From Vairimorpha necatrix (lineage: Eukaryota), in NCBI GenBank assembly GCA_036630325.1, contig CP142737.1:124001-188000 (forward strand): a DNA stretch of 64,000 nt, given 5' to 3'. Of this stretch, positions 1,254 through 37,610 are shown piece by piece. The notes beneath the pieces were generated by a model. That model did not search any database and had not been told where the DNA came from. It saw only the letters and a program-made list of their open reading frames with translations. Position 1 is the stretch's first letter; every line of letters begins with the position of its first letter. The translations under genes and the position numbers were made by a program.

Positions 1254-2213
1254 ATGCTTAAAATAATTCATATGATCGAATGCACTGGAATTTTAAATTA
1301 TTCAAATAAATTAAATTTGGTGAAGGCGAGCGATATAATGTCGTATAAAAATTATGAAAAAAAAACTAATGCCTCTGTAGATGAGAAAAAACTTCCGTTT
1401 AAAAAAAGGAAAAGATTATTAAACTCAATAGCTTTTTCTGAAAACATTTCAACGACAAATACTCTTCCTTTAAACACCGATTATATTCATAGTAATGATA
1501 ATTTAAACCAAGTCGGCCAATATAAATGTGAAAAACAAAAAATAAAGTAATATGAATTAAATCAAAAGCATAATAAATATAATAAGAATCAGATAAACAA
1601 TTTCGATTTTAATTCGGCACTAGAAATACTAAATGACATAATAGAACATTGGAGTTCGGAAGATAAAAAACAGCCATATGACGATATGATTATTATTTGC
1701 GACAGTTCAACAAGCGAATACAAAAATTATATAAAATCTAGAGACACTATCAATAGAGTTTTCTATTATTTTAGAATTAGTTTAGAGTTTCTCATATCTA
1801 CAATCAAGAGTGCTTTAAAAAGATCTTTAAAAAACGAAAGATGTACTGTTTTATTATTCAAACAATTGTTGTTTTGTGAACAATGCGTTAATTATATAGC
1901 CAAAATGACAAATGTTAAATTGAAATACAAACTTTCTAGCCAGAAATTAATATTTATCTATAATAGTATACCTATAAAATTAAAAATTTTTAATGAACAT
2001 TTGAAACTAGTTGAAAATTTTAAGATTTTTAAATTCTGGATGCAAAAGACGTGTGCTAATGTTTTAAACGAAAATGAGAAAAATGCTATAAACATAATTG
2101 ACGAAAAGTTGAAAAATTTATTTCGAAAATTAAGAAAAATAGACGAACATTGTTCAAGTATCGTGTTGAACCTTAAAACACTTAGATCCAAATTTGGAAA
2201 AAAATATGTATAA
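1254..2213 (+). pseudogene. Secreted basic-motif family member with one in-frame stop (TAA 1548-1550)
   Basis: ORFs 1254-1550 and 1686-2213 share a frame and read through cleanly (YELNQKHN...IEHWSSED) apart from one TAA. Shares C-T-x N-terminus, KKLPFKKRKR, W, CD and LNLKxLRxK motifs with 19702-20646. CCC before ATG. Confidence 0.8.
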
Positions 2214-5200: not shown

Positions 5201-5657
5201 GATATCTAAAATCTAACGTCTTTAATAAAATACATGATATAAATAATAAAATTATGTAAAACTACTGATATACGCAAAAATGCGACAAAGTTTTAACTTA
5301 TATTCGGTAACTTTCATTAAATATTTTATATCAAAACTGAACTGATATTTTTGGTTATGATATATTTCTGATATGACGTATTATTATTCAGAAAAGCGTT
5401 ATCAAAATGCTTAGAACATTTGGATGATATAATTTATAAAATATTTGGTATAATGTATCCCATATATAAAAAAAAGACTTTCTTAACCCACACAATATAG
5501 TAAAGAAATATACGAAAATGTCTGTGCAACGTTTTAAATGCTATTTATTAAATCTTATATATTTAAAAATTATTAATTATTTAGATATATTTTTTAAAAT
5601 TGAAATGCCACCTTTTGTGCTATTTTTTATAAATAAAAAATTATCCGCCCCTTTGAT

Positions 5658-6568
5658 ATGTTTCAATTTATTTTTTTTAGTAGTATGTAATGATATTGCA
5701 AATCAAACTAATGATTCTAATCTATTGCAAGCAAATTATTACTTGCAGTACCAACATAAAAAAATAAATATTATACGGCCATAGATGAATACAAAATACA
5801 TTGAAAATGCGGAAAAAATTGTACAATTCGTCGAATAAAAAATAGAAATCAACAGCCCAAACTAGCAATTTTATTCCAGCAAATTATTATTCCAAAGATG
5901 AGCCAAATTAAATCGATAAGCGTATAAACGAGGATCAAAAATGAAAGACAGCGGAACACAATCAGAATAAAATCAAAAAAAATTTTGATAGTTAATACTG
6001 TACAAAATTCAGTATTAGACAATCTGAAAGATAAAATTCAGAAGATAAGAAAATCGAAATTGGCGCCATAAAAATAAAATGCGATACTCCACCAAACGAA
6101 CTCAAAAAAGATTTTAAGTTTATCAATAGCATTGTTGACATATTTAAAAGTTTCGAAAGTGAAACTAGAAACAGTTAATAAAGTTATTCTCAAAGATTGT
6201 AGCGAAGAAAACCATAAGAGATTATTATATGACTAATATTTATTTCTTAAAAGTTGCTTGAAATATAAATAATATGTTACCTAATGAAAAGAGGCATTAG
6301 ACCAAGAGTAATATATTGATAAAATTATATTTTAAAATATATAATCGACTCAGAAATTTTTTTATACAAAGTTTAAGTAGTAAAAAATTTTAAAAATTTA
6401 CCATAATTTAAATAAACATATGTGAAAATTCCTTAACTAAAGATAAAAAATATATGTTTTACCAATTAAGTAAAAATTCGCGATTTTTTTCAAATTATAA
6501 TCAAATAGATCAAAGTTATCTTGAAAGGACATCAAATCAAATGTTTCATAGAAAAAAAATGAAATAAA
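5658..6568 (+). pseudogene. Decayed paralog of the same secreted family
   Basis: Fragments VVCNDIANQTNDSNLL and IKCDTPTNEL align by eye to ICTEVLIQTNESNLL and INCDTTANDF of 19702-20646. gcccc precedes ATG 5658. Many frameshifts and stops; 3' end approximate. Confidence 0.7.
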
Positions 6569-6919
6569 ATTAAATTAGGTACAAAATAGGTTTGTAATCT
6601 ATAAACACAAAAAAAAATTGTATTCTACATTTTTTTAACTAATATGCTCATTTTAGTCAGAATACAAATTAAATATTTATTTTTTCAATGGTAAGACAAG
6701 AAGAAACTCTCCATAGGAATCGTCAGTAGTTAGACTTTTTTTTGTAATACAAATTCTCTGTCATACTTTTAACAAAACTCTGACATTTTTAACTTTTTAA
6801 GGAAAAAACAATACCCCTTTGATTATTGCCTTTGGACCAAAAAAATCAGTAAATATTTTAGACTATATCGCAGGTAAAATATTTACAAGTAAAAAAATAT
6901 CTAGTGGGTTCATTGCCCG

Positions 6920-9900
6920 GAAGAGTCATCATCAGTTTTACTTATAAGACCTCTGATTTCATCTTCATGCATACATCTATTTGCCCCTAAGTTTTTTTTT
7001 CATAATTTTGAACTCTATAGCCATTTTAATCTGATCAAGTTGTTTTTTATGTACTATAATCCTTAGAATATAGTATTACACATTAATTCTACTGTCCGTT
7101 TCAATAAATTTTTTTTATTTTCAAAGTTCTTTTCTTCCGCTTCTTTACTCATCTTAGAAATTATGGCAATAAAAATATCAACATTTATCCTCCTTAAGAA
7201 TAGGGTCATCAATGATAAGTTTGAGTTGAGATATATGCCTTTTAACTTTCTTTTCCCGGCGTCTAACATGTACTTATTACCCTCTAGATATTTCTTAATT
7301 TTACCTCTTAATTTAAATCTCGATGGCCCCTTCTTATAAATTCCTTCTTCTTTCATAATTACTATATCGTCTTTATCCAATTTAATTTTTTTTGATTTTC
7401 TCATTTGGGCTGTATTATATGCAACAATATTCTTAATTTGTGCATTTTTTAATCAATCCGTATTTTCTAAATAGAAAGCTTCATTTGGAGTCATCCTCGT
7501 AGCCGAATGATAGCTATTATTGTATATCTCTATTCCTCTGTTAACCTTTTTAGTAAGTAATTTTTCCTTTTTATTTTTATAGATTAAATCTTGTATAGTA
7601 CGATTAAACCTTTCTACACGCCCATTTGACTGGTGATGGAAATGTGTGGTATAATGTAATTCTATTTTATTTGCTTTGCAATACATTTTTACCTTACTAC
7701 TGAGATTTTCTTTCGATTGATCTAAGTTCAATGTCTTCTAAAGCAAAGCTAGATTTATTTCTTTTATAAATTTAACTATATTTTCATCTTTTCTCTTATT
7801 TATCAAATTAGCAAATCTCTTTCTCGTAAAATAATCAATCCCGGTTATAATGTATTGTGTGTTTTTTAAACCTAGCATATCTATAGCAATTCTTTCTCCC
7901 TTTGCATATGAGGTGACAAATTTGTGTTGCTTAGATTTTTTAGAATTATACTCGTTGCATTTTTCACATCAATCTATAATTCTTCCAATCAAATTGTGTG
8001 AATTTTTTATAAATACCTCTCTTATATATCTCATATTTCACTACTGTATCCCACGGTAAGTAACTCATTATGAATTTCTCGGATCATCTGAAGCATTTTT
8101 TTTTCGTCTATTTTTTCATATTGATTTATCAATCCTTCGTGTAAATTCAATCTCTTATCGTTTATTGCCAACCCCGAATTCGACTTAACAATCTACATGA
8201 GGAATTTCTCGATCTCGTCTATATCTAATCAAGAATTAAACAATTACAATCTATCTAGCTATCTTTGTATTTCAGAGACTGATTCTCTTTCTATATAAAG
8301 CTTCTAACGCTTTATAATCTGTGACAATTTCAAAATGTGTACCGTATACAAAATATCGAAAGTGTTCCATTGCCCATAACATGGCTAGACATTCCTTTTC
8401 GCTAATACTATCTTTAATATCATGTTCTAATAGCCTTCTCGATGCAAATGCAATTGGTTTTTCATTTTCATCAAACTTTTGCGAGAGTATTCAAGCTATC
8501 CCTTCATTGAAGCGTCGGTCTCAGTTTAAATTCTTTTGACCAATCTGGCTGAAATAGTCCGACCGTATTGTAAAAAAATCCTTTTAACTTCTTTAAAAGA
8601 GTTCCCTTATATATTTGTCCATTTAAACTCTTTCTTATCTTTCATATATTCATACAAAGGACCACATACAATTATACAGTTTTTAATGAATTTTCTATAA
8701 TAGTTTATGGCGCCTAAAAATTTTTGAACCTGTTTTTTGTCCTTGGGTGGTTTTAATCCTCAATAGCTTGCATCTTATCTATGAACGGAATAATGATGTT
8801 GTTTTTTATTTTTTATCCAAGGAATATAACTTTGGATTGTCTAAATACAGACTTTTCCTCATTGATTTTGAGACTATTTCTAGTAAAAGTTTTCGAATTC
8901 TATTATATGATTCGTCATGCTCTTTTGCTGTTTTCCAAATATTAAAATATCATCTACGTAGCAGAAACAACTTTTACCAATTTCATCTCTCAAAACTTTA
9001 TCCATTTTTCGTTGAAAAAATTGCAGGAGCATTCTTAAACCCCCGTGGCATTACTTATCACTCATATAATTTATGTTTATATCAAAATTCCGTTTTATAT
9101 CTATCTTTGGTGCCAAAGGAATTTGAAAAAAATCCATCCTTCAAATCCAATATAGAAAATACTGTCATGTATCTTAAATTACAAAGGATTCACTCTATTC
9201 TTGGTAAAGAATAATTATCCTGTTCTGCCAACCTATTAAGTGCGATTAAATTGGTTGTAACCTTTACAGTGCCATCTGTTTTTATCGCGGAACTCAAATT
9301 ACTACCCCACGTTGATTTTGAGTTTTGTATAAATCCCTTTTCTAATAATTTATTAATTGTAATTTTGATTCTTACTTTCAATTATTTTGGTAAATTATAT
9401 ATCTTCTTATCACTTTTGAACCTTCAGGTATTTTGATTTCACATGTATAACACAGTTTCTCAACATTATTAAGTCTAATTAATGTTTCTCTTCCAAAGAG
9501 GATTTTTTTCATTTCGTACTTTTGGCAATATATAAAACTTCGATCTATATGAGTGTCATTTATATGTGTAATTTGATATGACATGTTTTTTTTTATTTCA
9601 AATGATTCTTCCAAACATGTCCAAATTTTTAATGTTATTGTGTAATTATGTTAAAAGTATAAATCTTGCTACACTAGCACTATTTATAAAATTGTAATTT
9701 GTACCTGTATTAAACAATACTGGAACCTTTTCCCCACAAGTGTAAACTGAATTTTTCTTATCTAATAAATCTCTAAGTTTTCTAGTAATTTCATTGAAAT
9801 TTCTCTTAAGATTATTACTTCGCTCTGGCTTTCGACAATTCAAGCGTAATGCCCTAAGCTATTACAGTTGTACATTTAACTGTTTTCTTGTCCTGAAGTT

Positions 9901-10480
9901 TAAAAGAATAAATTTTTTCAATCATTAATTTTGTATTTTAAATCGATGTAATTCAACTATACACTCACTTTCTAATTTCTTGATTGTCTCTAGATTTTTG
10001 TCTGTAATATCGCTTTTTGCCAATAAAAATCTTTTTACATCGCCCATTCCTGTTTTAAGTCATGCTGTAATTATATCAATGATTTTCTTTTTTGCAAGTT
10101 TATACTCTCTAGCTGAATCTCTAACTCATTCTATAAACATTAGAAGTTTCTTCATTTCGTTGTACCATACGATATAATCAACTATAGTTAACTGTTTCTT
10201 ATGAAATTCGCTTCTAGCCAACTCTTTCCATTTTTCGTAATCCAACGAACACCTCCTTTTTGTGTCCATTACTCATGGAGCCAATCTACTAAAGTAATCA
10301 GCTCTTCTAATCAAATAATCATTTTTCCTCTCATCGCACATTTCTCTGAAGAAGGTCATATTTTCTATCTTCTACATTCACTCATCAAAACTTCCTTTTT
10401 GATGGTAGTTTCAACTGGCTTTGTTATAATATTCTCCACAATTTTATTTTTAAAGTTCTTTTCTCCACTTCCTTACTTAT
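6920..10480 (-). mobile_element. Degenerate Ty3/Gypsy LTR retrotransposon (gag-PR-RT-RNaseH-IN)
   Basis: Minus-strand fragments in Gypsy order: CCHC knuckle (NCNSLGHYA, ~9840-9875), protease-like LFNTG, RT (DNYSLPRIE; YVDD ~8950), RNase H (PIAFASR, EKECLA), integrase HQSNGRVERFNRT (7453-7731). Many stops and frameshifts. No LTR pair recognised; ends approximate. Confidence 0.9.
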
Positions 10481-11723
10481 CTTAGAAATTGGAAAAAAAA
10501 TATGAAAATATCAACAATTTTAAACAACGAATTACAAAAAAGCGCATTTTCCAAGTTTTATATAGTATATAAATACTTAAAAGTACATAATCGTAGACAC
10601 TTGACCAATTTTTTCGGTCTAAACATGCATTCTAAACTAAATTATCCTCTTTCCCTTTCTATACAACAAACTGGTTTATATTCAATTATTTAGAAAAGAA
10701 TAAAATATATTTTCGCAAAAAAAAAAAACTTTTTAATTTTAACAGCACATTTTGTTTATACTATTTTTTTGCTTATAAAAGAGTCTTCAGTCTTCATAGT
10801 TTTATTTATTCTTCTCTTAATCACAATTTACCAAAAATTAAATATAGACAATAAGAATTAATTTACTTCGTAACATTGAGAATTTTGCATACGAATTTAA
10901 AGTTTTAAGCTAGATTAATTGTTTTTAAGCAAAAACATAATTAATTGCAGATGATATTTGTTTTATTAAGTTATATACATATATAAAGGGTTAAAATTCC
11001 TCGTTGATATATTTATAAATTCTACTCTTAATACTTCAATAATGCACTTTACAGCTGTTTTGTTTTTTCTGTAAGTAACTATTAGCAAGGATTTATAGTA
11101 GCTCTGTTCTCTATTCAGATTCTGTTAAATGATTCTTTTCTTGGGCCATATTCGTTAGCTGATTTTATCATATTTTACCCAATGATGATGATTTTTAAAT
11201 GCATAATCTGTTATATTAACATTTACCATAAACTTTTTATTTCACAGTATTAGTCTATTGCTGATTTACATTATTGTATAGTTTAATAAAAAACGAAATG
11301 CTTTTATGGTTATAATATGTAGATATACATGCGTGTCAGAGCAAAAATACTGTTAATAAACAAGTAACATCAAAAAATAAATATAACAGTTACGTCAATT
11401 ATTGTGTTATTCTTGGCTCTTATTACTTCATCTCGCTCTGCTATTATTTATATTATGTTCACACAAGTTAAAAAAATAGAAATATATTGTGAATTTATTG
11501 TAAGTACCCTTACGTATTGAATATTAAACACAGTAGAGGCATTTTTATTAGGCTTTTGGAATTAGAATTTATATATTTGACGCTTTACATTTAAAACCAT
11601 TTATTAATTAAAAATCGCTAAATTACAAACACATAAAATAAGTCTACTACTGCTCTCAAAACCAAATTTAACCCAACAAATTCCCAAGAGATACGATACG
11701 CAACCTACAAAACATTTTTCAAA

Positions 11724-12857
11724 TTATGTTTTCGAACCATGCATTTCTTTGATTATTTCTATTACTGAATTTATACGTGAACACAATTGATCTTTATCAT
11801 TATAAAAGTTGTCGATTTTTTCTTTTAAAATTTTTAGATCGTTAAAAACAATATTTTCGTTCTTGCTTTTGCTTTGATTTTGACTTTTTAAGAGAATATG
11901 TATTGATTCAATCAGTTCTGATATATTAATAGCACGCGTTATTGTTTCTATTTTCCATATGTCTGAAGACAAAGTGTATAGCAACTGTATAGACTTTGTA
12001 TTTATGCATAAAAATGTCTGATTAGGCATCATAAATCTGAAGATATCAATAACTAAACTAAAGGAATCAATAATTACTTTGTCCACAGAAGAAGTCATTT
12101 GCATGATTTTATTTTTAATTCTTATAGCGTATCTAAAAATACCATTTCTAAAAATATAGTTTTTTCGTCTTAAATATAACCTAGATGTAAAGAGTTGTTC
12201 TTTATATTTTTTTTTTATTTGGTCTATACATATATATTTATTTGGCTCATGAAATATGATAAGTTCGGCTTGTTCTTTTATATTTTTAAAATTATCACTC
12301 ATTTCTTTATATTTCGAATAAAGTAAAGAATTTCCATTTATTTCGTTAATACAATTTTTTGTATTATCGTCTTTATTTTGACGTATATATTCGTAAATAT
12401 TGCCACTGGGATTTTCCAAACTACTAATACCTAAAAACTCCCCTAGATTGTATTTCGGATTATGCTCATTTTGCTTAGAAATTTCTGCTCTTGCTTTAAA
12501 ATTAGTGTTGTAAGGCATCATTGTTCCCTCTTTTTTTAGATTTACATCTATGTTCACCTTTTTTTCGTAATTTTTAAAATGACCGAATTTGCTTTGAATG
12601 TGTTGTTTAGTAACTTCTTTATTTTCTTGGGAAATTTGGTTGTCTAATGATAGGCTTTTATAACTTGCATAAAATTCCATTATGTCCTCAACATCTTCAT
12701 ACTCTATAATTTCATTGTTTCCTTCGGCCAGAATCGACTCAATATCAAAAACTTCGTCTAAATTTGCTTGATTTTCAATTGGAGATGACTTTAAAATTCC
12801 ATTATTATTATTATCTATGTAGTTCGAACATATATATATTGAAATGAATATAAACAT
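11724..12857 (-). CDS. Hypothetical, probably secreted protein (377 aa)
   Basis: Long ORF with gcccct before the ATG and a short hydrophobic N-terminus (MFIFISIYICS). No recognisable domain. Confidence 0.7.
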   Translation of the reverse strand: MFIFISIYICSNYIDNNNNGILKSSPIENQANLDEVFDIESILAEGNNEIIEYEDVEDIMEFYASYKSLSLDNQISQENKEVTKQHIQSKFGHFKNYEKKVNIDVNLKKEGTMMPYNTNFKARAEISKQNEHNPKYNLGEFLGISSLENPSGNIYEYIRQNKDDNTKNCINEINGNSLLYSKYKEMSDNFKNIKEQAELIIFHEPNKYICIDQIKKKYKEQLFTSRLYLRRKNYIFRNGIFRYAIRIKNKIMQMTSSVDKVIIDSFSLVIDIFRFMMPNQTFLCINTKSIQLLYTLSSDIWKIETITRAINISELIESIHILLKSQNQSKSKNENIVFNDLKILKEKIDNFYNDKDQLCSRINSVIEIIKEMHGSKT

Positions 12858-14957
12858 AGGGGCATAAAAAACTTCTATGGCTACAAAAAAAATTTAAAAA
12901 GCAATTGTTGAGTCTAAAACAAGGTTTTGAATAATCTTGTTTGATATATAATTTGCAAAAATCTATTCATCAATATTTACTTAACCATAACAAGTAGCAT
13001 TTGATGTATATAAGTGTTTTGATAAAATTAAATTATAAATTGTGATAAAAAAGATGTACTTTTTATGTTTTATTAAAATCACATCAATAAATAATAATTT
13101 ATTAATGAAATAACGTAATGAACCCCCATTTTTAGTAGTAGCAAAAATTATAATATACGGATGCTGAAAGATACAAGGTGTTTCTTTTCTCATAATTGTA
13201 GTTTCAACCTTTAATTTCTTTTGTCTTTCATACGAGACTAAATGTTGTATAATGACTTCAACCCTATTATAGATATATAATTTATTTTGTATGCGTCATA
13301 CAATATTCATGCATTCCCCCAAGTCGACGCAAAAAAATATCATGTTATTATTTATACCTTTAAGTGGCGCATTAATATGATATTAATGTGTCTAAACCAG
13401 AATTCAAATTCTTTGCCTTTTATAAATCGTAGGTTCTGTCTATATTTTTTCACATCAAAGCTATTACCCTTGAAAATCCTTTTATATAATCTCCGAACTT
13501 ATGAATTTTTAGAACAATATATATCATATATTACACGCTTGTTAAAAGTCTAAGAATATTTTCCAGCTGAACTGCCCAATTTAGGTCCTATACTAAAATT
13601 TTTGGATCTAAAACCGTATGGAGAAAAGTCCCCAACGTAAAAATAGACTTTAAAAAAAAGCTCTTAAAAGGAGACATAAAAATGAATAAATTTACTGTAA
13701 ATTATCATCCGTAAAGTTTATAAGACGCGTATTTCTTCAAGAAGTTTCTAACATTCATGTATTGAAATTCTATATTATAAATCTTATTTTAATTTCTTGT
13801 ATTTGTTAAAAGATTGTTTTTCTTTCTTTTGTTATTATGTTTATATATTCAAACAATTTCAAATTCCTAACCACATTAAAAGCTCAGTTAAACTTTGATG
13901 TAGTAATTTAAATTTTCTTTTATGTTAGAATTTAAATCATTCACTCAATTATTTGTAAATAGTATGTACAGTACTATCTTTCTTTTATATAATTATGTCA
14001 AAAGGGTTGGATTAACTAATTGTTCACTAATGGTAATGAAGTTTTTTTAAGTATAAATACTATAACCACGACATAAAACTTAATTAATTGTTTGGAAATA
14101 ATATTAATACTTTCTTTGCTAAAGAATATTACTCATAGCATACATTTATGTAGAAACTAAAAAAGGAACATCCTTGTATAGTTTAGAAAATCAAAAAGAT
14201 TTAAATTATTTTAAATCTGCCTGTGAATAATGAAATACAATAAAAAATAATTTTTGTGTTTGGTTAGACACTATGTAATGTTTTGTGTTTAGTCAACTCG
14301 AAAGTTAATCAAAATTATTATTTAATAATATTGCAAAGTTATAAGAAATTTTAAAATCTTCTACATATGCTTCAAATTTTATCTTTGCTGGAAGAGTAAG
14401 GGCAAAAGAGCAAAAATATGCTACATCATAAAAATGACCACTAAATCCCCCAAAAGGCTAAAGGGCAAGTAAAATGTTCCATTAATTGTAAATACCTTTA
14501 TATTCGAGTCGTTTTTTACTTTTATCAGATCAGCATGCTGTTATTTTTTCTTTAACACTTAAAAAATTTCATAGTGTATAAATCCAAGTTCAGATCTTGT
14601 CATTAATAACTTATTTCAATGTCACGATTATTAGAATAGCTAAAACTTTGATTCACTTCATGTAAAAAAAATTTTATTTTCTTTTCATGTTATGTATACT
14701 TGAATGTAATTGTAATTCTGAGTCATCGAGCAGCAATGTTGTTGCAAATACAATTTCATTTTGTGTTTTTCTGCTTGTAAGGGCATCTCTATAAAAATCT
14801 TTATACACAAATAGCATTTAAATTGGAAAGTACATAGTTTTTTATAATTATGTTTTTAATAAGTCGATATTTCAATTGATAAAATATTTTTGCTTATACT
14901 ACAATTTAATCTTAAAGTAACAAGATTATTTTTAAATAAGCCGGGCGTTTTTGTGGC

Positions 14958-15012
14958 TGTTGAGAATATAGATTTAATAAATTTAACCCTTAACTTACAA
15001 TTGTCTTTAACA
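14958..15012 (+). repeat. 5' LTR of TRIM (55 bp)
   Basis: tgttgagaatatagatttaataaatttaacccttaacttacaattgtctttaaca, identical to 15652-15706. Confidence 0.95.
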
Positions 15013-15651
15013 TGGTGGAGAATAAAATTATTGAACCCAAACAAAAACAAAAGAAGAGATCGTAAGTTCCGTCGAAGCATGTCACGTAAAAAAATGCAGT
15101 CTAGGTTAGAAAGGGGATGGTTGGTTGTCTAACAGAAGAGAAGGTGATGGCTTGCATCAGTCGAGGGACCCGGATAGGTGAAGACGTAAAGTAGCTATAA
15201 AGAGCTATGGAGAAACAGTATTGACTGTAATAAGATCTGGCATAAGAGTTGTCGAGATTGAGTGTGGTGGTAATCCCACTATTCACATTAAAGCTATCGT
15301 GGCAAGATAGTTGAACTAATAGTGTTCAAAAATCCAGAGAGATTTAAAAAGAGAAAAAAATCAAAAAGAAACTGTGTTATAGTCGAAGAATGAGATATAC
15401 GGAAAAAATTCGATTTCATTGTTGGGAAGACATGTGTAAAGAAAAATCACATGCCCATAGACTTTATGTATTATAACAGGGAAAGAAAGTATCGCGAAGA
15501 CCAGGCTAACAGGGATAGTAAGACGCGGTAGAGTAAAGCGCAGCCCATGGTCAGTTAACATAAAAATGCACTTTTATTTTGAGAGCCCAGTAGTAGGCGT
15601 AGGAAGTAGTAAAGATAATTTCATCGCCCAATTCTGAATTTAGCGCGGGGA

Positions 15652-15706
15652 TGTTGAGAATATAGATTTAATAAATTTAACCCTTAACTTACAATTGTCT
15701 TTAACA
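15652..15706 (+). repeat. 3' LTR of TRIM (55 bp)
   Basis: Identical to 14958-15012. Confidence 0.95.
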
Positions 15707-17328
15707 GTGGCGATTTAACTCTTTTTATAGCCTTCCGTAATTTAATTTCCTATGCCTTTTATTTAAGCATGTCTTTCTTTCTGATCTTGTAATCTTCTTT
15801 CATTTTTCATTTTAATAAAGTTCCTTAACATGAGAGGAATTTAAATTTTGGTAAAAAAATCATACAGTCTTCTAATGCATTAAACTGCATATTAGAATTG
15901 ATATATTTGTTATATTTGTAGGAAGTGCTACATATGTCAAATATATGGTGTTATTGTTCGATATATTTGACATGTCGTTTCTTTAAATATTTTATAATAA
16001 TTAAAACCATGTTTTAATCCCACCAATATTGTATTTCTAGTAATTATTAGTGTCGTATCCTTCTATAAATATTATATATTTTCAACCCCATGCAATTCGT
16101 AAATAATAAAGCATTTGACAATTAGTATCAAATTAATATTAATTTTGATTTTAAGAATAAGGGTTTTCTGTCAATTCTGTTTGTTCATTTCGAAATTTAT
16201 TTTAAAGGGGTATTCTTTCAAATCTTCTATTATAAGTTGGCGGCCTTTTCCACAGACCGTTTGTTACAAGTTTAGTTTTATTTTCCGCCAGAACTGCTTT
16301 AATCAAATCCTTTTTAGAGTATTCTTGGATCCAAAACTTATATTTAGCTGCGAGAATTGATCTATGGTTCAGTACCTCGTAGGCTTTAATCTCAAAACTA
16401 AGCTTCTGGGGTTGAAGCATACCATAAATTTGTTTTCGGTTGTAAGTAATTTCTAGAGTCCCGACTATAATACTACATATTTATAAATTACTCTTTGTGT
16501 TTTTATTACGGACTACAATTTTGTTCTTTTTTCTGGCCATAGAATAATTTACGCCGTTTATTGCGTCAGATAGATTTAATTAAGATTGTCGACAGATATT
16601 TTATTTGCATCGTTGTGTTAACTATATATATTTTTTATACGCAAAAATTATATTATATCATTCAAGTCGTAATTTTCGAGCATCTCCGCATTTTTCCCCC
16701 ACTTTACTTAGCGCTTCATAAAAAGTAATAAAAAAATGAAAAAAGATAAAAATCAAAAATTTACATTCCGTAGTTGACGTGAATCTCATACTATTAATAT
16801 ATCTTATAAGCCTTATGGGTCAGTAATCCTGTGTTTTAGTCATTTACATTGTACTCAGCTTACGATGAATAAAATCATATGCCACTTATTAAATTTTTTT
16901 CGAAATGATCAAAAAAGATATGTTATATTTTTTTTATTATAAAACCTTGAAAACTATTTTAGAGAAATCTAAGTATCAATGATAACGAAAATTGAAGAGA
17001 ATAAGCATTTTAAATTCCCTTGTACACAATACTGTCTAATAAGTATAAACACGAAGAAAGCAAACCATATACACGAATTATTCTTAGGAAGTAAATTTAA
17101 TCAAAGATAATGATCTCATGGTTTAGTAATTGACTACATTATATAATTTCGGCAAGTATATGTTATACAGAACAGTTATAAATTTATTTTTAATTTAAAA
17201 CCTAAAGAAATTAATAAAAAGTTTAAATCTGTACAACCAAATTGTTAAATATCTCGTTAAATTATGTATACATACATACGAAATTTTTATTAATCTTTAG
17301 AAAAATATAAAAAATATATAAATTAATC

Positions 17329-18428
17329 GGCTCTAGGGCCTATTCCCGGGTATTTTTTTGTTTAAAGGTCCCCCCTTTAAACAAAAAAATTATAAAAAAA
17401 AAGAAATCTCAATTATTAATTTTGAATTAAAAGTTTTAAGAGAGTTAAAAGGGCGTCTTTATAGGCTTGGAATCATGAGTTTTTAAATTTCTTCTCCTCC
17501 AAACATATTCTTCTATATACTCTGGCATTGAATAACCTGGTATTCCTTTCCTCGTTTTGATGTCCGATTTGAAATGAGACCACTCACATACTATTAAATT
17601 AGTGTGGTCTCCATCAGCATTGGTGAATCCTTCCTCATGGTTCACGATTTTATGTACTCCGCCAATCCCACCAACAGCGTATGGATAGGATCTGTGCCCA
17701 TCTGTTTTTTATTACAGACATAGGACTAATATTTTCAGAGAAAAAGTCGAAGAATGTTTATTTTTATATTTTGTAAAACTTTAAGAACTAGTTTTCTAGT
17801 TTTTTCTTCTACTGCGCCAATTATCCAAGTAGCTTTACTAATTGAATCATACATTTCAGATGGTGACTTAATAAGTTTTCCTTTTATTATAACACTCTCA
17901 TCCACTTGTATTGGGTGCTCTGGCCCCAATTTCTCCCATATATTCTTATTATCTTCAGTTATTACTTCTATAATATTCCTTTTAATTCTTTTTATAGTAT
18001 TTAAAGAAACCGAAGTATTTTTATTAATATTATATTCATAATTTTTTTTGAACCATGAATATATTATAAACAAGTATTCGCTTGTGTCTATCTTTGGACT
18101 TGAAATTTTTAGCCCCTCAAAAACTGATTTGAATTTTCTACACAATAAGTTAGTACATCTGAATCGAAAACCGTTCGAATAAGAAATATCATGTTCCAAA
18201 ACCATGCTCTCATAACATTACGAGCATGTTTTAAATTCTTCAAGTAAGCCATGCCTTTGAATAAAGGCCATGGCTGCTTCATTTGAAAAAATGTCAGATC
18301 TCGAATTTCTTGGTTCTTCTTCAAAATTATTCATTTTTTAGGGGTTGTAAAAATTTCCCAGTTTAGGGCCTATTCCCGGGAAATGCCGTCTTTTTTACGT
18401 TCATTACCCGGGAATAGGCCCTAGCGCC
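17329..18428 (-). mobile_element. Merlin (IS1016/ISXO2-like) DNA transposon with frameshifted transposase
   Basis: 24-bp TIRs (17329-52 and 18405-28, 23/24 match) and 8-bp TSD AATTAATC (17321-28, 18429-36). Transposase motifs QVDES, WIIGAVE, TDGHRSY, VNHEEGF...HTNL are split over several frames; ATG ~18334. Confidence 0.93.
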
Positions 18429-18809
18429 AATTAATCTAATTTAAAAATTGAATTTATTATAATGGTATTAATTTATTAGATGTCATATTATTTTTAAAAT
18501 CTTTTTTTAAAGATTTTTGGGGGATTTTTATTATTGTTAATCATTTTATCAATTGGAATTGACTAATTCCATCATTATTTATTGAATATATGTAACAATT
18601 AAGATTTTGTAGTTATACTAAATACAAATAATTTCGTAATATCAATCATCGAGAAACTTTTTTCTAAATACTAGCGTGTTAGTGTTTATGTTCATTTCTC
18701 GTACCCTTCCCTTTGTAATATTTTAAATTAATGTTATTGAAACATCACAAATCACAAGTAATATTTTATAATATAATAAAGATGTTTAAAAGTTTTATTC
18801 ATAATTATT

Positions 18810-19160
18810 CTTGGCGTGTTTACCGGGGAGCTTGCCTGTAGCAAGGAAGCATTCAATGATGCTACGGTTTGGGGAGCCGTGAAACCCGGAGTTAAAAGAG
18901 TTAAAGGGAAAGGATTGTTTATTGTTATGAAAAGAGTTTGGCTTATCTGATTTGTAGAAGGAAGAGTGTTGTTTGCGTTCTGATGTTGTACCATGTTGTT
19001 TATGGAATTTCTCTATTTACATTACATAGTAACCAATAGAAAGAAATTAGATTTGGCTGACCAATAATAGTCGACCATAACTAATCGTTCCGAAGAAGCA
19101 TCAGCGTTTAAGTATTTATTGGTTATTATAAATCATGTGGTATGATCCATTATACCACAA
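18810..19160 (+). other. Candidate structured non-coding RNA island
   Basis: Four-way junction at 18823-18889, crossing long-range helices and a terminal 10-bp hairpin. G-U pairs favour the + strand. Confidence 0.45.
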
Positions 19161-19694
19161 TTCTTTTAGCGCTTTTTTATATTATTAGAATTTAAAGCAT
19201 ATTTAGAGGATACTATTATACATAAGTTCAGTTAAGGTACGTTAAATAAAAATACGACAATAAAATAATATTTAACGAGTTTGATTTTGTACAATGATTT
19301 TTAAATTAATTTCTTAAATAACGTTTTTAAAAAATTTTTATTACCATATTTTTTCGTTCATTTAAAACTTACAAAGGAGTCTAATATGTATTTGATAATT
19401 CTTATTTTTTTTAACATTCGATCAAAGATAATTATAATATTCTATTTATTTATAGTTTTCCAATAAAATAAAAAGTACATACAAAGTTTAAGCTTGCTTT
19501 TAAAAATTAAAAAAAGCAGTTTTGAATTGCTCATATTTTTATTTTTTGTTGTAATTAAAAAATTTAATTTTTCATTGTTAATTATATGTTCACAAATGTA
19601 AATTAAATAAATACTCTATTGTTTCTGCAGAAGAATTTTATAATAGTACTGTTTAATTTATTTTTATTTCTATTTCTTTTAAGAAGATTTGTAA

Positions 19695-19701
19695 CCCCCA
19701 T
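19695..19701 (+). promoter_or_regulatory. Microsporidian CCC-type motif before the start codon (example site)
   Basis: CCC lies within ~15 nt upstream of most ATGs in the window (e.g. 1254, 12857, 37159, 38840, 43404, 49668, 51289, 57824, 63347), a known microsporidian promoter-proximal feature. Confidence 0.75.
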
Positions 19702-20646
19702 ATGCTTCATCATATTTTTTTTACGATATGTACTGAAGTATTAATACAAACAAATGAGTCGAATTTGTTAGAATCGAACATTATACAACATGAAATTGAA
19801 AATGAGGCGACCTCTTCAACAGTCATAAATCAAAAAAATCTACCAATAAAAAAAAGGAAGAGATCATCAAGCAATGCGAATGATACAGATGAAAACTTAG
19901 CAGCACCTAGTTTATATAACAATCAAAAACTTTTTTATTATAATGATAATCCTAATTCATGCGCTAAACGTTCACGCGATGACCAAAAAATGCGTTCTGA
20001 GAGATTAAATAAAAATAATAAAAGAACACTTATTCTATTATACGAATGCATACTGGAATTAACTGAATTAAAAAATCAAATTATTTTATGGAATTATGAA
20101 GATTTAAAATTACAAAATGACACTTTGAAAATCAATTGTGATACGACAGCTAATGATTTTATGAATTATGATAAAAATAGGAAAATAATTGGTGAAATTT
20201 TTAGAATATCAAACATTGATTTGACTAAATACTTGACAAAATTAGCAACTGTTATTCAAAATGTTAATATCAATGAAAATTGCAAGTATTTGTTATGGGG
20301 ACAATTTCTTTATTACAAACTATGCATTCAATATATAACTAATATGTTGCCCAACAACATATACTATATTAACTGTAGCAAATTGTTGATTTGTATATAC
20401 CGTAAAGTATATAAACGACTCAGTATTCTAAAAAATAAGTTAAAAATAAATATAAAACATAGCAAATTTTTATTTAATTTGAAAAAGACATGTTCATGCC
20501 AATTAAATGTAAATGATATTTCTGCTATCGAGCACGTGGAAAGAACTATACTATACTTATTTGCAGAATTAGATTACATTGGCAAAAAGTGTAGCGATGT
20601 CATTTTAAATCTTAAAATTTTAAGAAATAAATATGGAATTAAATAA
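19702..20646 (+). CDS. Secreted-looking protein with NLS-like LPIKKRKR (314 aa)
   Basis: Intact ORF with ccccc before the ATG and a short hydrophobic N-terminus. Paralogs at 1254, 5658 and 24923. Confidence 0.85.
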   Translation: MLHHIFFTICTEVLIQTNESNLLESNIIQHEIENEATSSTVINQKNLPIKKRKRSSSNANDTDENLAAPSLYNNQKLFYYNDNPNSCAKRSRDDQKMRSERLNKNNKRTLILLYECILELTELKNQIILWNYEDLKLQNDTLKINCDTTANDFMNYDKNRKIIGEIFRISNIDLTKYLTKLATVIQNVNINENCKYLLWGQFLYYKLCIQYITNMLPNNIYYINCSKLLICIYRKVYKRLSILKNKLKINIKHSKFLFNLKKTCSCQLNVNDISAIEHVERTILYLFAELDYIGKKCSDVILNLKILRNKYGIK

Positions 20647-21017
20647 TAAACACATCAACATATTTTAAGATCACGAAAATTAAGAATGCATTTTATTTTT
20701 TAAATACTAAGAGGTAATAACTTTATTGGAGTTCTTATTTATCATAAGTATAATTGATCTTTTTTATATGTGTATATAATGTTTGCTATGATATAAACAC
20801 AATGTCAAAACATGTTCTACTATTAGTATAAATTCATAAAGTTTAACTGTTTTGTGATATATGGTCTGAAACCAATCACAAAAATTTATTTTTAAATTTA
20901 TAATTAATTGATTGGTTATCGCTTTTAGCAAATCGTAAATAACAAAAACTTCATAATAAACAATAAAGAAAGAGCACAATTTTAGATCAGATTGATTTTA
21001 ATAAAGATAACGAAGAT

Positions 21018-21805
21018 GGTGCCCTTAGCACAGTGGTAGAATGCAATGCTTCCATTGAGCAATGGCTGGGTTCGATTCCCGGGGGCACCAAAATTGTTTC
21101 TACTTCTATGATGCAGTTGGAACAACTCAGATGATGAAAATGTCCACGACTATCATTAAGTTGATTGAATGAAACGTGTGTGTGTTCAGCCACAAGGGGA
21201 TTAGCATCTAGTGTAGAAACGCACCTCAAAGCCAAAAAGCAGTATATCGCCCTTTGGTGACTTAATTATACATAAAAGTATCTAATGGGTACGGCCTAGT
21301 TGGAGCACATGCCCGGTGCACTCTAGAGTGAGATCCTAGAGCTAAAGAGAGACTAGACGAAGTAGGGCAATAGAAGGTCTCGTGGACCCTATCCTACATG
21401 ATTCTGTAACACGGTGGCCGAAACTAGTGGGAGACTGATGGTCAACGCAGCCCAATAAAAACGCCGGGCTGGGGATGTGGTCGTGTAAGGAGCCGTGTGT
21501 GCAATACGGATGATTGTAGGGACCTTTGAGTCAGTACGATGATGTCTCTCCTCGGGTTATAGATAACCATGCCCGTTAAGTATATCCGCTGTGAGGTCAC
21601 TCTGGACGCGATTTGAGGTATAAATGGAAAGTGTTCTCCTGGAGCCAAAGTCCAATGGATACGTCGAAGCTTGCTGCCCCGGCAAGTTGTATGGAGGGAG
21701 TTTTAGTGAGTAAGAATCTCACAGTGCCAGTCGGATGAGAATCCCACCCAAATCCCTCTGGTCCCTATGTAAGGTTTCTCCCTATCTCTTACTTGCAAGA
21801 AAAAA
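21018..21805 (+). mobile_element. tRNA-headed SINE-like retroposon, copy 1
   Basis: tRNA-like head 21018-21090 (GGTGCCC/GGGCACC acceptor stem, A-box TAGCACAGTGG, B-box GGTTCGATTCC), A-rich tail and 15-bp TSD AAAGATAACGAAGAT (21003-17, 21806-20). Collinear diverged copy at 54269-55027. Confidence 0.9.
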
Positions 21806-24800
21806 AAAGATAACGAAGATTAGAACCCCAATTAAATCAAGACATTTTGTATATTACAAAAAATAAAGATTTTAAATCAATTTTAAAATGTTTAAATTAT
21901 TCGATGCTTATATTTTCTTTTAGGTTAGAAGTTTTAGCACTTAGAAATCTAAAATTTTTCAAAGAAACTAAGTTTGTGATTCACATAGTTTTTAAGATGC
22001 AAACTTCAATACAAAAAGTATTTGTAACTTAAAACAAATACTAAACTGATATGAGGTGATTATTTCTCTAACTATAGGTTTAATTAATGCAAAACCTAAA
22101 ATATGAAATATAGAATAATTCAACTACAAAAAATCCTTAAATTATTCGGCAACAATAAAAAACACACAATAAACCCCTGTTATATTTTTTTTGTACATAT
22201 CAAACATTTTTATATAATTTAATACCTAATTTTCAATTCTCAATAAGGATGTTTTTCTTTCAATTATGTAATTACCACACGGTAAAACATCATTACTTAT
22301 TTTATTGCAATTTTAATTTTGAGGTATCAATTTTTTTCAGCTAACTCTTTCTTGTATTCGAGAAAAAAGACAAACAATTTGATGAAATGTTGGAAGCCGA
22401 ATGAAACCACTTCGGCTTATAGAATGTAAAACTAAAAACAACATCAAATATTATTATTAGCACTATTAAGGTAACCCGATCAAAATTAGTGACTTATATA
22501 GTTACATGAGAAGGTTTGGAATTGAGATTAATAGAAAAATATGGATGAACTGGAATTTTTATATTGCTTGAATCATACGAATAGTCCAACGTACTAAAGA
22601 GGGCGAGGAGACACACTCTTTGTATTGAAGACGAGAATTCGATCAGGATGATGCCTAAGAAGAGATAACTAATTGTTTAGTCACTAATGTAAGAGTAACT
22701 TTAAAAAAAGAGTTTTACGTGAAAGTTGAACCTGTTAACTATTTAAGTTTTTGAGTATAAATTTTGAGTAGCAAAAAATGCATATTCCGATTTTCATAAG
22801 CTTGACGAGGAAATAAAATTTAAATGTAAAACAACGTAATAAAACTGGCGATTTAAGTAATTTAGTACAATTAATAAATAAAAATTGAAAGACATAAATA
22901 TCAAAATCTTCACTTTTTAAAGAAATAGTATAGTTAAAACTTTATACTGTAATTCTGATGTCAAACACAATAACTTAAAATAAAAAAACATTCCAAATAG
23001 AATTAAAATTCCTTAAATATCATAGAAAATGTAAAAATAAAATTATACATAATGATTTTGATCTGTTAGATAAATGATTAATTATTTGCGTTTGTTTTTT
23101 TATTTCGATACTAAATTAAAACATTTATTAATGCTAATTCTTGAATTAATTCACAGCAGCGTCTTAATGTTTTTTTTTAAATTATTAACTACTATATTTT
23201 AGACAAGTTTGAATGTATAACTACATTAACCAACTTATTTGAAGCTCTATGTCCATATCATTTTCCTAATAATCAACATACAACTTAATCTTCGAGATTG
23301 AAATTTAGAAAAATTGATATAGTTGTTTTACAATAAATTATTCACTTTGGAAATCAAAATACTTATGTTTCCACGATATGTGATAAATTTTTGTTTCGAT
23401 TGTAATATTTTCTATTATCTCAAAGAATCCAATCTCTAGCATCATTCCATTAAGCGGACTCTATAAACATATAACATTGCTTGAATCTAGCTTGTTATTT
23501 ATGAGTCTTGTCCTCATTAATACATAAAGAAGTGATTATTGATACTACCCCAACACCGTAGTATCTTATATGTAATGGTTTAAATAGTCAATATCTTATA
23601 ATCTGCGTTAGATCTCCCTCTGCGTAATATTAAAGCTTTGAGTAATTATAGATTTGCCCAAGTATGTCTTAATATAATTTATTGTTGTGAAATCTCATAA
23701 TGTGACCTAAAAAGCTTTCACGACTCCAATAATTATAATGTCGATGTATTGTTTCATGATTCTTAATGAATATTGGATAATTTCCAGCTCCGAATCTTCG
23801 TTTAAAAGACTATGGAATGATCACAAGCAAGTAATTTGTTTCCGGCTATGTAACATTCGCCAAGAAAAAAACAACCCCGCATGATAAAACTTTTGATAAT
23901 AATTTGAAACCAAACTAAGAAGAAAACTATAATAGTAAAAATGCAAAATAAAAAAGTCTTTCTTTAAATGACAATTTTTTTACACCTAGCTCTCTTTTTC
24001 ACAATTATTTTTAATTTCAATGAATTTGCTAAAGTTTTTATTTGACAACTTGTATTTTTGATTGCAATTCTGTCCTTTTCAAATAACGTTTTATACTGAT
24101 ATTACTGAGCTGGCGGTTTTTTTAATTTAGCTACATACATGTACGTTTTTTGATTTTAAATGTATGTTTTGATATTTCTCCTTATAGATTCTTTTTTTAT
24201 TGATATTAAAATGATGATTTCTGATTATTTACAAGACAAAAGGAAAGTTCATGGTATTTGATAGTTTCCTGTTCATTTTTATATAGACTTCTTAAAAAGC
24301 CAATTTTTTAAGTTGGTATGTTTTTATTAAAATATAAATTTTGCATGAAAACAGCATAAATGTCAAGTTTTAGCTGTAATGACATGTATAAGCTTTCGTG
24401 AACTACGGAGAACTCTTTTAATGTTATATATATTATGTTCCATAATGAATTTATGTTATAATTCTTTTAGATTATTTTTTTTACAATTATCTTTGACAGT
24501 GAAATTGATTGAAAAATTTGACAGCACTTGTTTTGTAAATGTTAGTAATTAATAGTATATATATAGTATTAAAATTATATTACCTCGCTGTATCAATCAG
24601 AATAAACAAAAAATTATATTTTATTGTGATTTATCTAGTATCAATATGAAACTTCTTTGGTTATCATTTGAAGTTTTTTTTCTAAATTGCTGTTCTATTT
24701 TCTAGTATTTAAAACATATAATTGGTTGCTGCATTAAAACGAAACTCGACATGTGTAATTTAATTACATGTTTTGTTACTAGATTTTAACTCTATAAATT

Positions 24801-28664: not shown

Positions 28665-30295
28665 GTTTATTTATCGAAAAGTGTTTAAGTAACCGATGTT
28701 TTAAATTTAAATTTTTTATTGGGTACTGAAGAAACAGGTATGAAACATTGTCAGTAAAATGAATTTAAAAAGGAAAAAGTGGTATTTTACAACTATATAT
28801 TGAAAATATATATTTTTTTTATAAAATGTGTTTCTGTCAAATGCCATTTTGATATTTTTATAAAACATTTGTATTCTTGTGTATGGGGTTTAAACAAATA
28901 CATTTTAAAAGCATTAATTTATTATAATATATGTATGTTTTTCATTTTCAATGTAATTATTAAGAAATGTTATAGTAATTAATATTCAATACGCAAAAAA
29001 GAGTTACATATTTATAAAAATAAAACATTTTTTTTTACAAACATTTAGAGTTTATGTGTCAAATGTCACATAGACGAATCAATTATGTTTGTTGTAATTT
29101 TAGGGTAAGTACATCCTACCTTTAATGTTTTAAATTTCTTATGTCTCGATGTGCGACATCTTCTAAAGGCTTATGTTGTTCTCAAAACACAATCTAAAGA
29201 GAGATTCCATACTCTTTGAGGATCAGTGCCAGTCCAAGGAGCATTTTAAATCGGCAATTTGCTTTATTTACTTCTATAATGTTTATACGTTTTTGACGGA
29301 GAAGAAGAAGTGGCTAGAGCTGTAAGCGCACTAGCGAATATGGCGACTGTTAAAGAAGTGGTGTCGGCAAAGGGGAATGAAGCTGAAAAACTGAAGTTGG
29401 AAAATATTAATAATTCCACAGAAACCAAAGTCTGTGAAGAGCTGAATCCCATGAGCGATTCCGGGGAAAGCTGTGCTTTAAATATTTAAGCTCAATGATA
29501 AATTAACTCAATAAATTCTTATTAATACTTTTTTGACCATATTATTATACGACCTATGTCATATTGTAAGATTTAATATTTTTTAACTCAAGCTTTTTGT
29601 GTTTAGATCTCTATAGATCTTTTTAGTGCTTTCAAACAATAACTTACATTTCGATAGATGTCATTCCACTTTATTATAATAAATGTGATCTTTCATTATT
29701 CTTTTACTTCTCATAGGATACACTCAATCTTCAAATATTTGACCTTACAGCTTTTTATAAATCTTCTAATACGTTCTCTAATATTAAGCTTGTATTTTTG
29801 TCACAGTTAGGCTTCTTCTCTGTTCTAAGAACTAATTTTCGGTATAAATGCTTCCGTTGAGTTCCAATCGCAGCTCTTTCGTGTTTGGGCGCCGATAATT
29901 TACGACAATTCCTGTCACAAATAAGAAACAATTCTTTGCTAAATTTGTAGCTAGAAGCCTCGTATAAAGTTTATTTTTCGCCCAAAATTGGATAAAAGAC
30001 TTTTATTTATTTGAGATTTTTATTGTGTTTTTACAGTATTAATTTATAGAATTTTTTTACAATTTAAATATTAAAAAATTTAAAAATATTTTTTTCATAA
30101 AATGTTTAATGGAATGTTTTTTAATGTATTAGGTCTTATTATTTATTTTCAAAATTGTTTAATTTTATATTTGTCAAAATTTTGAATTTCATAAATGTTT
30201 TTTACAAATTAAAAATATCAAAGATTTGAAATTTTCCACTATGTTTGAACATCATCTGCTTTCTTATTTTTTCTTTATTTTTTTGCCCTATTTTT

Positions 30296-36832: not shown

Positions 36833-37159
36833 TTAATTAATCTTCTCAGTTAATAAATCTGATTCCCCTTCATGTAAAACACTCATCACTCCTGTCCTGT
36901 ACTTCAACTCACACAAATTTGCAAGCGCATTATTCGTCCCTTCATAAAACTTCAAGGGTATTCCACCCGCCAAAACACAGTAATATTCTAACTGCTTCCT
37001 TTTTACAGAAGGAAGACTACTAGAGACAACAATACACTTGGCCTTCTTAGTGATGACATTTCTGAGAGCACTCTTGAAACCAATATCATATTTACCAGTC
37101 TTGACTACTAGAGGAAGAGAAGCGGCTAAACCGACGGCCTTGGAATATCTGCGACTCAT
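36833..37159 (-). CDS. RPL30: 60S ribosomal protein L30 (eL30)
   Basis: [35 protein letters not shown]. Confidence 0.93.
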
Positions 37160-37233: not shown

Positions 37234-37547
37234 AAAAAAGTTAACATTGACCAACTGGTACTGTGCGATTCTTACTCATTATAAAAAATCATAGCGGCAA
37301 CGCTATGTAGATTAAAACAAACATTATAAGAGATCAACAGATATAAAAGAACAAATAACTTGGAAGTCTTTTTTTGCTACCATCTGCATTTAAACACAGC
37401 CAATTTAAGCATACCATGAATTCTATGTGGACCACGCAAGCAATTAAGCCTTACGTCCCTATGATTTTAAATAGCTTAAATATTCGTCTAAAAAGGACAA
37501 AGTCCACTAAGACTGGTCACACACAAGTTTCATTGAATCAACTTAAC
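37234..37547 (-). ncRNA. Candidate ~310-nt structured ncRNA, possibly RNase P/MRP-like
   Basis: Non-coding, with complementary ends followed by T6. GAAAC-U-UGUGUG / AAUCGCACAGUAC forms a P4-like pairing. A helix closes three hairpins. End blocks are shared with both SINE copies. Confidence 0.55.
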
Positions 37548-37610
37548 CTATAAATCTATATATAAAATATAAATATATATATATTATATTTTGTGTCATA
37601 CTTAGATTAA

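Follow-up and report, generated by a model that had tools for sequence, protein, structure and literature searches.

We have identified a dispersed repeat at positions 21018-21805 of a 64-kb stretch of DNA (hereafter the window, meaning the whole stretch that was analysed). This element is probably a full-length, tRNA-headed and poly(A)-tailed short interspersed nuclear element (SINE), a non-autonomous retroposon without long terminal repeats (a non-LTR retroposon) of a microsporidian of the Nosema/Vairimorpha clade. It combines a head carrying an RNA polymerase III (Pol III) promoter, a short non-coding sequence, an A-rich end with a target-site duplication, and many dispersed copies that share the same ends; the SINE family that it represents is new and of the usual type. 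A preliminary description of the same DNA had taken it for a retroposon whose tRNA-like head is joined to a body related to the RNA of ribonuclease (RNase) P or MRP. What it had observed is partly, and indeed largely, confirmed, and its interpretation is partly supported, in that the retroposon stands and the relation to RNase P or MRP is unsupported. Two short blocks of the body, proposed earlier as the strands of a P4-like helix, are nearly identical to parts of a single, otherwise unrelated locus in the window, and this near-identity is the part worth following up.

Structure and ends of the element

The G+C content of the window is approximately 25%, and the kilobase with the element reaches 42%. 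The element itself has a G+C content of 47%, compared with 22-26% in its flanks, and the body of about 700 nucleotides (nt) with elevated G+C that had been described is indeed present. Within 20700-22200 the order is a 15-mer, a 74-nt cloverleaf-like head, the G+C-rich body of ~700 nt, a run of A and the 15-mer again (Table 1). The 15-mer, AAAGATAACGAAGAT, is perfect on both sides of the element and occurs exactly twice in the window. By chance 0.03 matches would be expected, and two occurrences were obtained in none of 100 shuffles. Both the A-tail and the perfect 15-bp duplication of the preliminary description are present. The duplication begins with AAAG and is preceded by T. Nicks at A/T-rich sites of this type allow priming by a poly(A) tail. 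On the other side, the body ends with CTTGCAAG at 21799, directly before the nine A.

The head begins with GGTGCCC at 21018 and contains an A box at 21026-21036 and a B box at 21070-21078. ARAGORN predicted a tRNA-Met(CAT) at 21017-21091, which is its sole tRNA prediction in the 64 kb, and the Rfam tRNA model scored 27 bits on the head, slightly below its gathering score of 29. A discriminator A is present, CCA is lacking, and no T-run follows; the head is tRNA-like and not a good tRNA. The box consensuses TRGYNNANNNG (A) and GWTCRANNC (B), which are given for microsporidian tRNA genes in the available text of PMC5499648, were used to search both strands of the window. A correctly spaced pair of boxes was found twice, in the heads of this element (copy 1) and of the second copy described below. 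The earlier claim that the retroposon begins with a tRNA-like head of the Pol III type is supported by the ARAGORN prediction and by the restriction of the box pair to these two heads.

Copy 1 contains a single TTTT and no run of five T over 788 nt, so a Pol III transcript could cross the element. No reading frame fills it, and the longest stop-to-stop frame (92 aa) extends beyond its ends; a coding body was ruled out on this ground. A conserved GAUGAUGA was noted within the linker that connects the head to the first block. Weak matches to archaeal C/D-box small RNA (sRNA) models (11-14 bits, expectation value (E) 5-9) were obtained at 21127-21202 and 54377-54434 on the plus strand, covering linker and block A; these were treated as noise, although they recur in both copies.

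Table 1. Coordinates of the element, its parts and related loci in the window
Feature	Position	Strand	Basis or remark
Left target-site duplication (15 bp)	21003-21017	+	Exact 15-mer
tRNA-like head (Met-CAT-like)	21018-21091	+	ARAGORN, Rfam tRNA, A and B boxes, contig ends
Linker, head to block A	21092-21155	+	No T-run terminator behind the tRNA-like part
Block A (proposed P4 5' strand and flanks)	21156-21191	+	Common to locus 3
G+C-rich non-coding interior	21192-21700	+	No open reading frame; no Rfam family at E<=10 beyond noise
3' region, weak R2 3' untranslated region model match	21695-21783	+	Rfam RF00524, lead only
Block B (proposed P4 3' strand and flanks)	21701-21734	+	Common to locus 3; local 5-bp hairpin in minimum free energy fold
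A-run (9 A)	21800-21808	+	Final 3 A also part of the right duplication
Right target-site duplication (15 bp)	21806-21820	+	Exact 15-mer
Locus 3	37234-37549	-	AT-rich intergenic; block A 37546-37507, block B 37284-37251; possible terminal stem, then run of six T
Copy 2, older	54269-55027	+	BLAST of element against window

Copies in the window and in public sequence runs

The second copy of the preliminary description was recovered when the element was aligned to the window, with 78.7% identity to copy 1 over 733 columns. It has a G+C content of 41% as against 47% in copy 1, carries a 21-nt deletion in its tail, and ends in a run of seven A. No tRNA was called in its head by either ARAGORN or Rfam, and its A and B boxes still match the consensuses. 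Copy 2 looks like an older insertion that is decaying toward the composition of its host.

Many variant copies were found in public sequence runs. Twelve runs were listed, eight of which contain parts of the queried 1701-base stretch and none of which contains half of it or more. Four of them (X1-X4) were compared at 80% likeness; the units here are contigs, so that depths are not copy numbers. All four contained pieces of the element (470 in X1, 258 in X2, 20 in X3 and 3 in X4). The X1 pieces were spread over all identity classes, with 94 at 99% or more, 116 at 95-99%, 136 at 90-95% and 124 below 90%. Before 21018 the contigs diverge into unlike, A+T-rich flanks (seven records in X1 with an agreement of 0.58, four in X2 with 0.57), and behind 21808 poly(A) continues in 29 records of X1. 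The ends of the element are therefore the ends of the family. The majority letters in X1 and X2 are C at 21167, T at 21176, C at 21186, A at 21726 and T at 21732, and the letters of copy 1 at these five positions are private to it.

Scans of other public sequences were negative. Among metagenome contigs there was no match to a pattern of block A, and a search for syntenic loci through the GDI protein gave 174 pattern matches, none of which was confirmed. Viral contigs gave two chance 20-mer matches, neither of which extends, and two further scans gave none.

The copies could also be regarded as processed pseudogenes of a two-part host gene, made of a tRNA-like promoter or leader and a long non-coding RNA, in which case no selfish SINE would be involved. 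Such a gene would agree with the copying of head and body as one RNA, which lacks CCA and is uncut at the 3' end of the tRNA part, and yeast and plants offer examples of RNAs driven by a leader or by a tRNA upstream of them. The pieces in X1 and X2, with their spread of identities, are a better fit to sustained amplification, and no candidate master gene was seen; we consider a pseudogene origin quite improbable.

RNase P and MRP RNA as a proposed source of the body

The preliminary description had proposed that the body holds a domain related to RNase P or MRP RNA, which would act in cis on its own tRNA-like head or recruit Pop proteins. Certain observations agree with such a domain. Its quoted P4-like strands are present in both copies, about 540 nt apart, and can be drawn as a bulged helix, the letter at the bulge being U in the family majority; many copies start at tRNA position +1; and both blocks recur in locus 3, where the strands are ~260 nt apart. 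An A-rich stretch before the helix and an AGUAAG before the 3' strand are further likenesses to nuclear RNase P and MRP RNAs. The differences from these RNAs are a missing covariance-model match, pairing at the level of chance, a GARAR loop that is not kept, the lack of covariation, and the lack of an identified conserved region (CR) II or III. The P4 of these RNAs is a long-range pairing of CR-I with CR-V that crosses P2, and helices of this arrangement can be drawn by eye in the two copies and in locus 3.

None of eight Rfam searches returned an RNase P or MRP RNA. The searches extended over the entire window, with gathering scores as the threshold, and, at E<=10, over the element with its flanks, the body, the 3' part, copy 2, and locus 3 in three sizes. 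The RNase P model, in which the CR-II and CR-III T-loops of the specificity domain are included, was among those without a match. Matches to mascRNA, GcvB, archaeal C/D sRNAs and microRNAs were set aside as noise. According to the available text of PMC5499648, Rfam 12 had the RNase P RNA of Nosema and was without its MRP RNA.

The richness in hairpins that had been ascribed to the body does not exceed chance. Compared with 20 shuffles for each strand, the minimum free energy (MFE) of the element had a z of -0.73 on the plus strand and -0.56 on the minus strand, which is no excess of structure. In the MFE fold of copy 1 the proposed P4 strands pair elsewhere, and block B forms its local hairpin instead. 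The duplex energy of block A with block B was -11.1 in copy 1, -9.6 in copy 2 and -11.2 in locus 3, and it was equalled in 30%, 37% and 42%, respectively, of 1000 dinucleotide shuffles. The strands exist as quoted, and their complementarity is matched by shuffled sequence. Block A also has stronger partners in 11-30% of the other windows of the same molecule. The P4-like helix contains a U-U mismatch in copy 1 as well as in copy 2. The difference between the copies at the bulged base, to which attention had been drawn, is real in that copy 1 has a G at 21176, but that G is private to copy 1 and T is the majority letter in X1 and X2.

Comparison of the two copies gave a similar picture. Their identity is 0.861 in block A and 0.857 in block B, values that are matched by 22% and 30% of windows of the same length, and the longest perfect runs between them fall outside both blocks. 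Of the 240 base pairs in the MFE fold of copy 1, 133 are the same in copy 2, 31 are kept with a one-sided change, 4 are compensated, 54 are broken and 18 are gapped. No covariation was found among the 222 ungapped pairs, and the P4 strands show one-sided changes only. This pattern is what neutral decay gives. A consensus of the two copies from RNAalifold, two sequences being too few for a test, has neither a cloverleaf nor a P4.

Sequence motifs of MRP RNA were also considered. A GARAR pentaloop in P8 is described as specific to MRP RNA, with some lineages lacking it, in the available texts of PMC1796607 and PMC13184271. A hairpin with this loop occurs once in copy 1 and is lost in copy 2, and no GARAR is present in locus 3. 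The latter source places CR-IV, with a length of 8 nt in RNase P and 6 nt in MRP RNA, just before the 3' strand of P2, and the former gives the MRP motif as AnAGUnA. All three loci carry an AGUAAG that is separated by 3 nt from the 3' strand behind it, or by 4 nt when counted from the AGUAA core; it is a short motif found by eye, with no statistic attached.

The body of the element is without demonstrable relation to RNase P or MRP RNA. Conservation of the blocks, covariation and similarity to P/MRP models were the three points on which the proposal had been staked beforehand, and all three went against it as far as tested. A start exactly at tRNA +1, which had been read as a possible product of self-cleavage, is shared by the contigs and requires no cis ribozyme, since the same end would result from a Pol III start or from removal of a leader by the RNase P of the cell. 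With chance-level pairing, no excess structure, unremarkable conservation of both blocks, a local hairpin in the place of P4 and silent Rfam models on the one side, and drawable strands, the shared +1 start and the recurrence of the blocks on the other, we hold a P/MRP-related domain acting in cis or recruiting Pop proteins to be very improbable.

A third locus with two blocks of the element

Both blocks recur on the minus strand in a 450-nt gap between the stop of the open reading frame (ORF) for the C-terminal part of Ste24 (37611) and an eL30-like ORF (36833-37159). BLAST of the element gave two matches in this gap, 37546-37518 (29 nt, 93%) and 37284-37251 (34 nt, 85%), and the region that contains them is referred to as locus 3. 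Copy 1 agrees with it at 27 of 29 positions in block A and 29 of 34 in block B. With the family majority of X1 and X2 the agreement is 29/29 in block A (34/36 when extended) and 31/34 in block B. The order and orientation of the blocks are the same in locus 3 and the element, and the spacing is ~260 nt as against ~540 nt.

Everything else in locus 3 is unrelated to the element. Its interior gave z values of -0.33 and 0.19 against shuffles when compared with that of the element, its tail was equalled by 53% and 79% of shuffles, and the upstream sequence was likewise without similarity. A decayed SINE copy was rejected on the strength of all three parts, and a repeat within the window was rejected on the finding that the interior has no second copy there. 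Their almost unchanged recurrence in a locus that is otherwise unrelated sets blocks A and B apart in some respect; this does not imply that they form a P4.

The G+C content of locus 3 is 33.9%, as compared with 26.3+-4.5% in non-ORF windows, which places it in the top 6%. Its fold has a z of -0.93, with 18 of 100 shuffles as good, and in the MFE structure the two ends can pair as a terminal stem and P4 is not formed. A run of six T (T6) follows the locus. A second T6, located 14 nt ahead of block B, speaks against read-through of the locus by Pol III. Three focused Rfam searches returned no family. Drawn by eye, the blocks give two crossing helices in the order of P2 and P4 with a bulged U, an arrangement that passed no statistical test; the P2-like and P4-like strands lie too close together to accommodate a P3 helix between them. 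Immediately ahead of the 3' strand, block B contains the AGUAAG, which agrees with the final five letters of the seven-letter motif AnAGUnA.

It can be hypothesized from these observations that a cellular RNA gene of the locus 3 type is the ancestor of the segment that runs from block A to block B. Read-through from a tRNA-like gene lying upstream would have brought about the capture of such a gene, with the conserved ends retained and the centre replaced or expanded, and locus 3 would be the resident gene, possibly for the RNase MRP-like RNA of this lineage. Blocks that match the family majority so closely while all else is unrelated fit a constraint on the blocks of locus 3. The position of the locus alone in its intergenic gap, its possible terminal stem, the T6 behind it and its high G+C content would also suit a gene. 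The same can be said of the drawn P2/P4 order, of the AGUAAG that fits part of CR-IV (PMC1796607), and of the lack of a Nosema MRP RNA in Rfam 12 (PMC5499648). Against an RNA gene stand the silence of the three focused searches, a fold that shuffles often equal, the absence of P4 from the MFE structure, block complementarity no better than in shuffles, the missing GARAR, the missing space for P3, the T6 before block B, and the low prior for one 64-kb window to contain an MRP-like gene. We judge this capture to be unlikely.

The available text of PMC5499648 reports that further Nosema non-coding RNAs were found only through comparison of intergenic regions between species, and that P3 is highly reduced in the sister genus. 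With a reduced P3 there and the gap in Rfam 12, an MRP-like identity of locus 3 keeps low odds. A more specific form of the capture would make the SINE a tRNA-like gene fused to a homologue of the ~310-nt resident RNA gene at locus 3, keeping conserved 5' and 3' core blocks that form a P2/P4-type pseudoknot of a highly reduced RNase MRP-like RNA. This is improbable; if true, it would be the first SINE derived from the RNA of a catalytic ribonucleoprotein, and its RNA might still bind Pop proteins. Were locus 3 a cellular RNA gene, the element would resemble Alu and B1 in keeping both end regions while differing in the centre, and 7SL-derived SINEs arose after a central deletion (available text of PMC13023118). 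It would differ from them in having a tRNA-like head and in the internal position of the shared blocks, and the cellular status of locus 3 is putative.

A different source for the blocks is a long interspersed nuclear element (LINE). The Rfam model RF00524, the 3' untranslated region (3'UTR) of the R2 retrotransposon, matched the plus strand of the element over block B and the tail with 20.2 bits, as against a gathering score of 38; E was 0.078 in a search of 709 nt and 0.03 in one of 271 nt. It is the only non-tRNA Rfam match in the element with E below 0.1. The match lies on the right strand and at the 3' end, and three helices are placed as in the model. It was not obtained in a 2-kb search, in copy 2, or around block B of locus 3, and the present family is dispersed, while R2 elements are specific to ribosomal DNA. 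We treat the match as a lead only.

If blocks A and B were modules of the 3'UTR of a partner LINE, recognised by its reverse transcriptase, the body would be largely LINE-derived, and locus 3 would be what is left, after truncation, of a related LINE or non-autonomous element in which these modules were retained. The position, strand and content of the RF00524 match would suit such modules, SINE tails are usually derived from LINEs, and fragments of a family with many copies are common a priori. The match is nonetheless far under its gathering score, and neither the 2-kb search nor copy 2 nor block B of locus 3 yielded it. Block A lies ~650 nt from the 3' end, and locus 3 has neither an A-tail nor any similarity to the SINE tail, with 53% of shuffles being as good. 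We rate LINE modules as decidedly unlikely.

Proposed mode of spread

Under the preferred reading, that of a tRNA-headed SINE, RNA polymerase III would start at or just before tRNA position +1, and its transcript would pass through the body, where T-runs are all but absent, and enter the A-run. This RNA would then be copied by a LINE reverse transcriptase through target-primed reverse transcription, with a nicked A/T-rich site as the target. After insertion, the copies would decay neutrally toward the A+T bias of the host, and copy 2 may serve as an example. LINE families are recorded in this clade (4 in N. ceranae, 15 in N. apis, 11 in N. bombycis and 6 in N. antheraeae; PMC4202319, Table 1, in the available text), so candidate partner enzymes exist.

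Several points weigh against the SINE reading. Copy 2 has no exact flank repeat at its 5' end and none of 10-15 nt with two mismatches or fewer. No reverse-transcriptase domain was found in any of the 27 scanned window ORFs, and no LINE partner was identified. A length of 788 nt is at the long end for a SINE, the origin of the ~500-nt G+C-rich interior is left unexplained, and a plain selfish SINE with a body of unknown origin does not explain the shared blocks. On the side of RNase MRP, the silence of Rfam is weak evidence because Rfam 12 missed the Nosema MRP RNA, and the covariation test has low power for insertions that decay neutrally, so that the master RNA could still be structured.

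Relation to known elements

The rodent B2 and ID elements represent the class of tRNA-headed SINEs. With tRNA-derived, poly(A)-tailed SINEs the present element shares the tRNA-like head with A and B boxes, the lack of an ORF, the A-tail, an A/T-rich duplication of ~15 bp, and dispersed, decaying copies. It differs from them in its body of ~700 nt of unexplained origin and in its microsporidian host. The preliminary description had suggested an undescribed class of SINE. Novelty holds to the extent that no microsporidian SINE is described in the literature searched, but the element is of the ordinary tRNA-headed kind, and the P/MRP domain that would have set the class apart is unsupported.

No description of a microsporidian SINE was found in the open-access literature that was searched. 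Surveys of microsporidian transposons report LTR elements, LINEs and DNA transposons, and no SINE in the texts searched. The word SINE is absent from the available main texts of PMC4202319 and PMC7313128. In the available text of PMC11585130 it is an empty RepeatMasker row (0 elements), and in that of PMC13702014 it appears as a repeat category in the methods and one figure legend only.

The closest counterpart is a novel dispersed repeat of N. ceranae, with a conserved core of ~700 bp, no coding potential and an occurrence on 250 contigs (Cornman et al. 2009, PMC2685015). The available text of that paper reports no match in GenBank or Repbase, unclear boundaries and subtypes, and mentions tandem copies. 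Core size, non-coding nature and presence on hundreds of contigs are the same as in the present family, and the host clade fits the proteins of the window. The repeat differs in that no tRNA-like head, tail or duplication is reported in the accessible part of the paper, and in its tandem copies, none of which were seen here. The N. ceranae repeat may be the present SINE family, the two having been compared by description only.

A tRNA-headed SINE family would give a mechanism to the main dispersed repeat of the first N. ceranae genome paper, where it was left unclassified, and it would imply a LINE machinery active enough for its spread. Each intact copy would add a false tRNA-Met gene to automatic annotation, and SINE insertions could be used as markers for the typing of strains and species in this clade of bee parasites. 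The blocks that the element has in common with locus 3 could be a sign of an RNA gene that has escaped annotation, and such genes are hard to find in A+T-rich genomes.

Other features of the window

The ORFs of the window are those of tightly packed eukaryotic housekeeping genes, and 17 of the 27 ORFs scanned have a Pfam family. They include genes for Sec23/24, Ste24 (split), Spc24, a GPN GTPase, GDI, WD40 proteins, Tsr1 and Mus81, together with ProRS, an SNF2/RING helicase, E2F and a ThiF-family enzyme. Among named proteins the best matches of ProRS, the prolyl-tRNA synthetase, were those of Vairimorpha bombi (76%), Encephalitozoon hellem (61%) and Nosema granulosis (57%), which places the host among the microsporidia of the Nosema/Vairimorpha clade, in line with the mention of Nosema in the preliminary description. 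Ste24, a CAAX prenyl protease, is divided between two ORFs on the minus strand (37611-38840), with Peptidase_M48_N at 38157-38840 and Peptidase_M48 at 37611-38093; the split may stem from a frameshift, from pseudogenization or from a mistake in the assembly.

Positions 1-20000 are gene-poor relative to the rest of the window, with only 10 ATG ORFs of at least 80 aa. None of the four ORFs scanned in this part has a Pfam family, nor does the adjoining ORF at 19702-20646. A direct repeat of 58 nt (98% identity) at 14955-15012 and 15649-15706 lies in and beside a non-coding patch at 15000-15400. The patch has ~40% G+C, at the top of all non-ORF windows, and contains no long ORF and no Rfam family at gathering score. 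A G+C content of ~39% outside long ORFs was also observed at 29140-29500, where only an acidic frame of 69 aa is present. A further repeat of 72 nt, with 83% identity, occupies 7113-7184 and 10442-10509.

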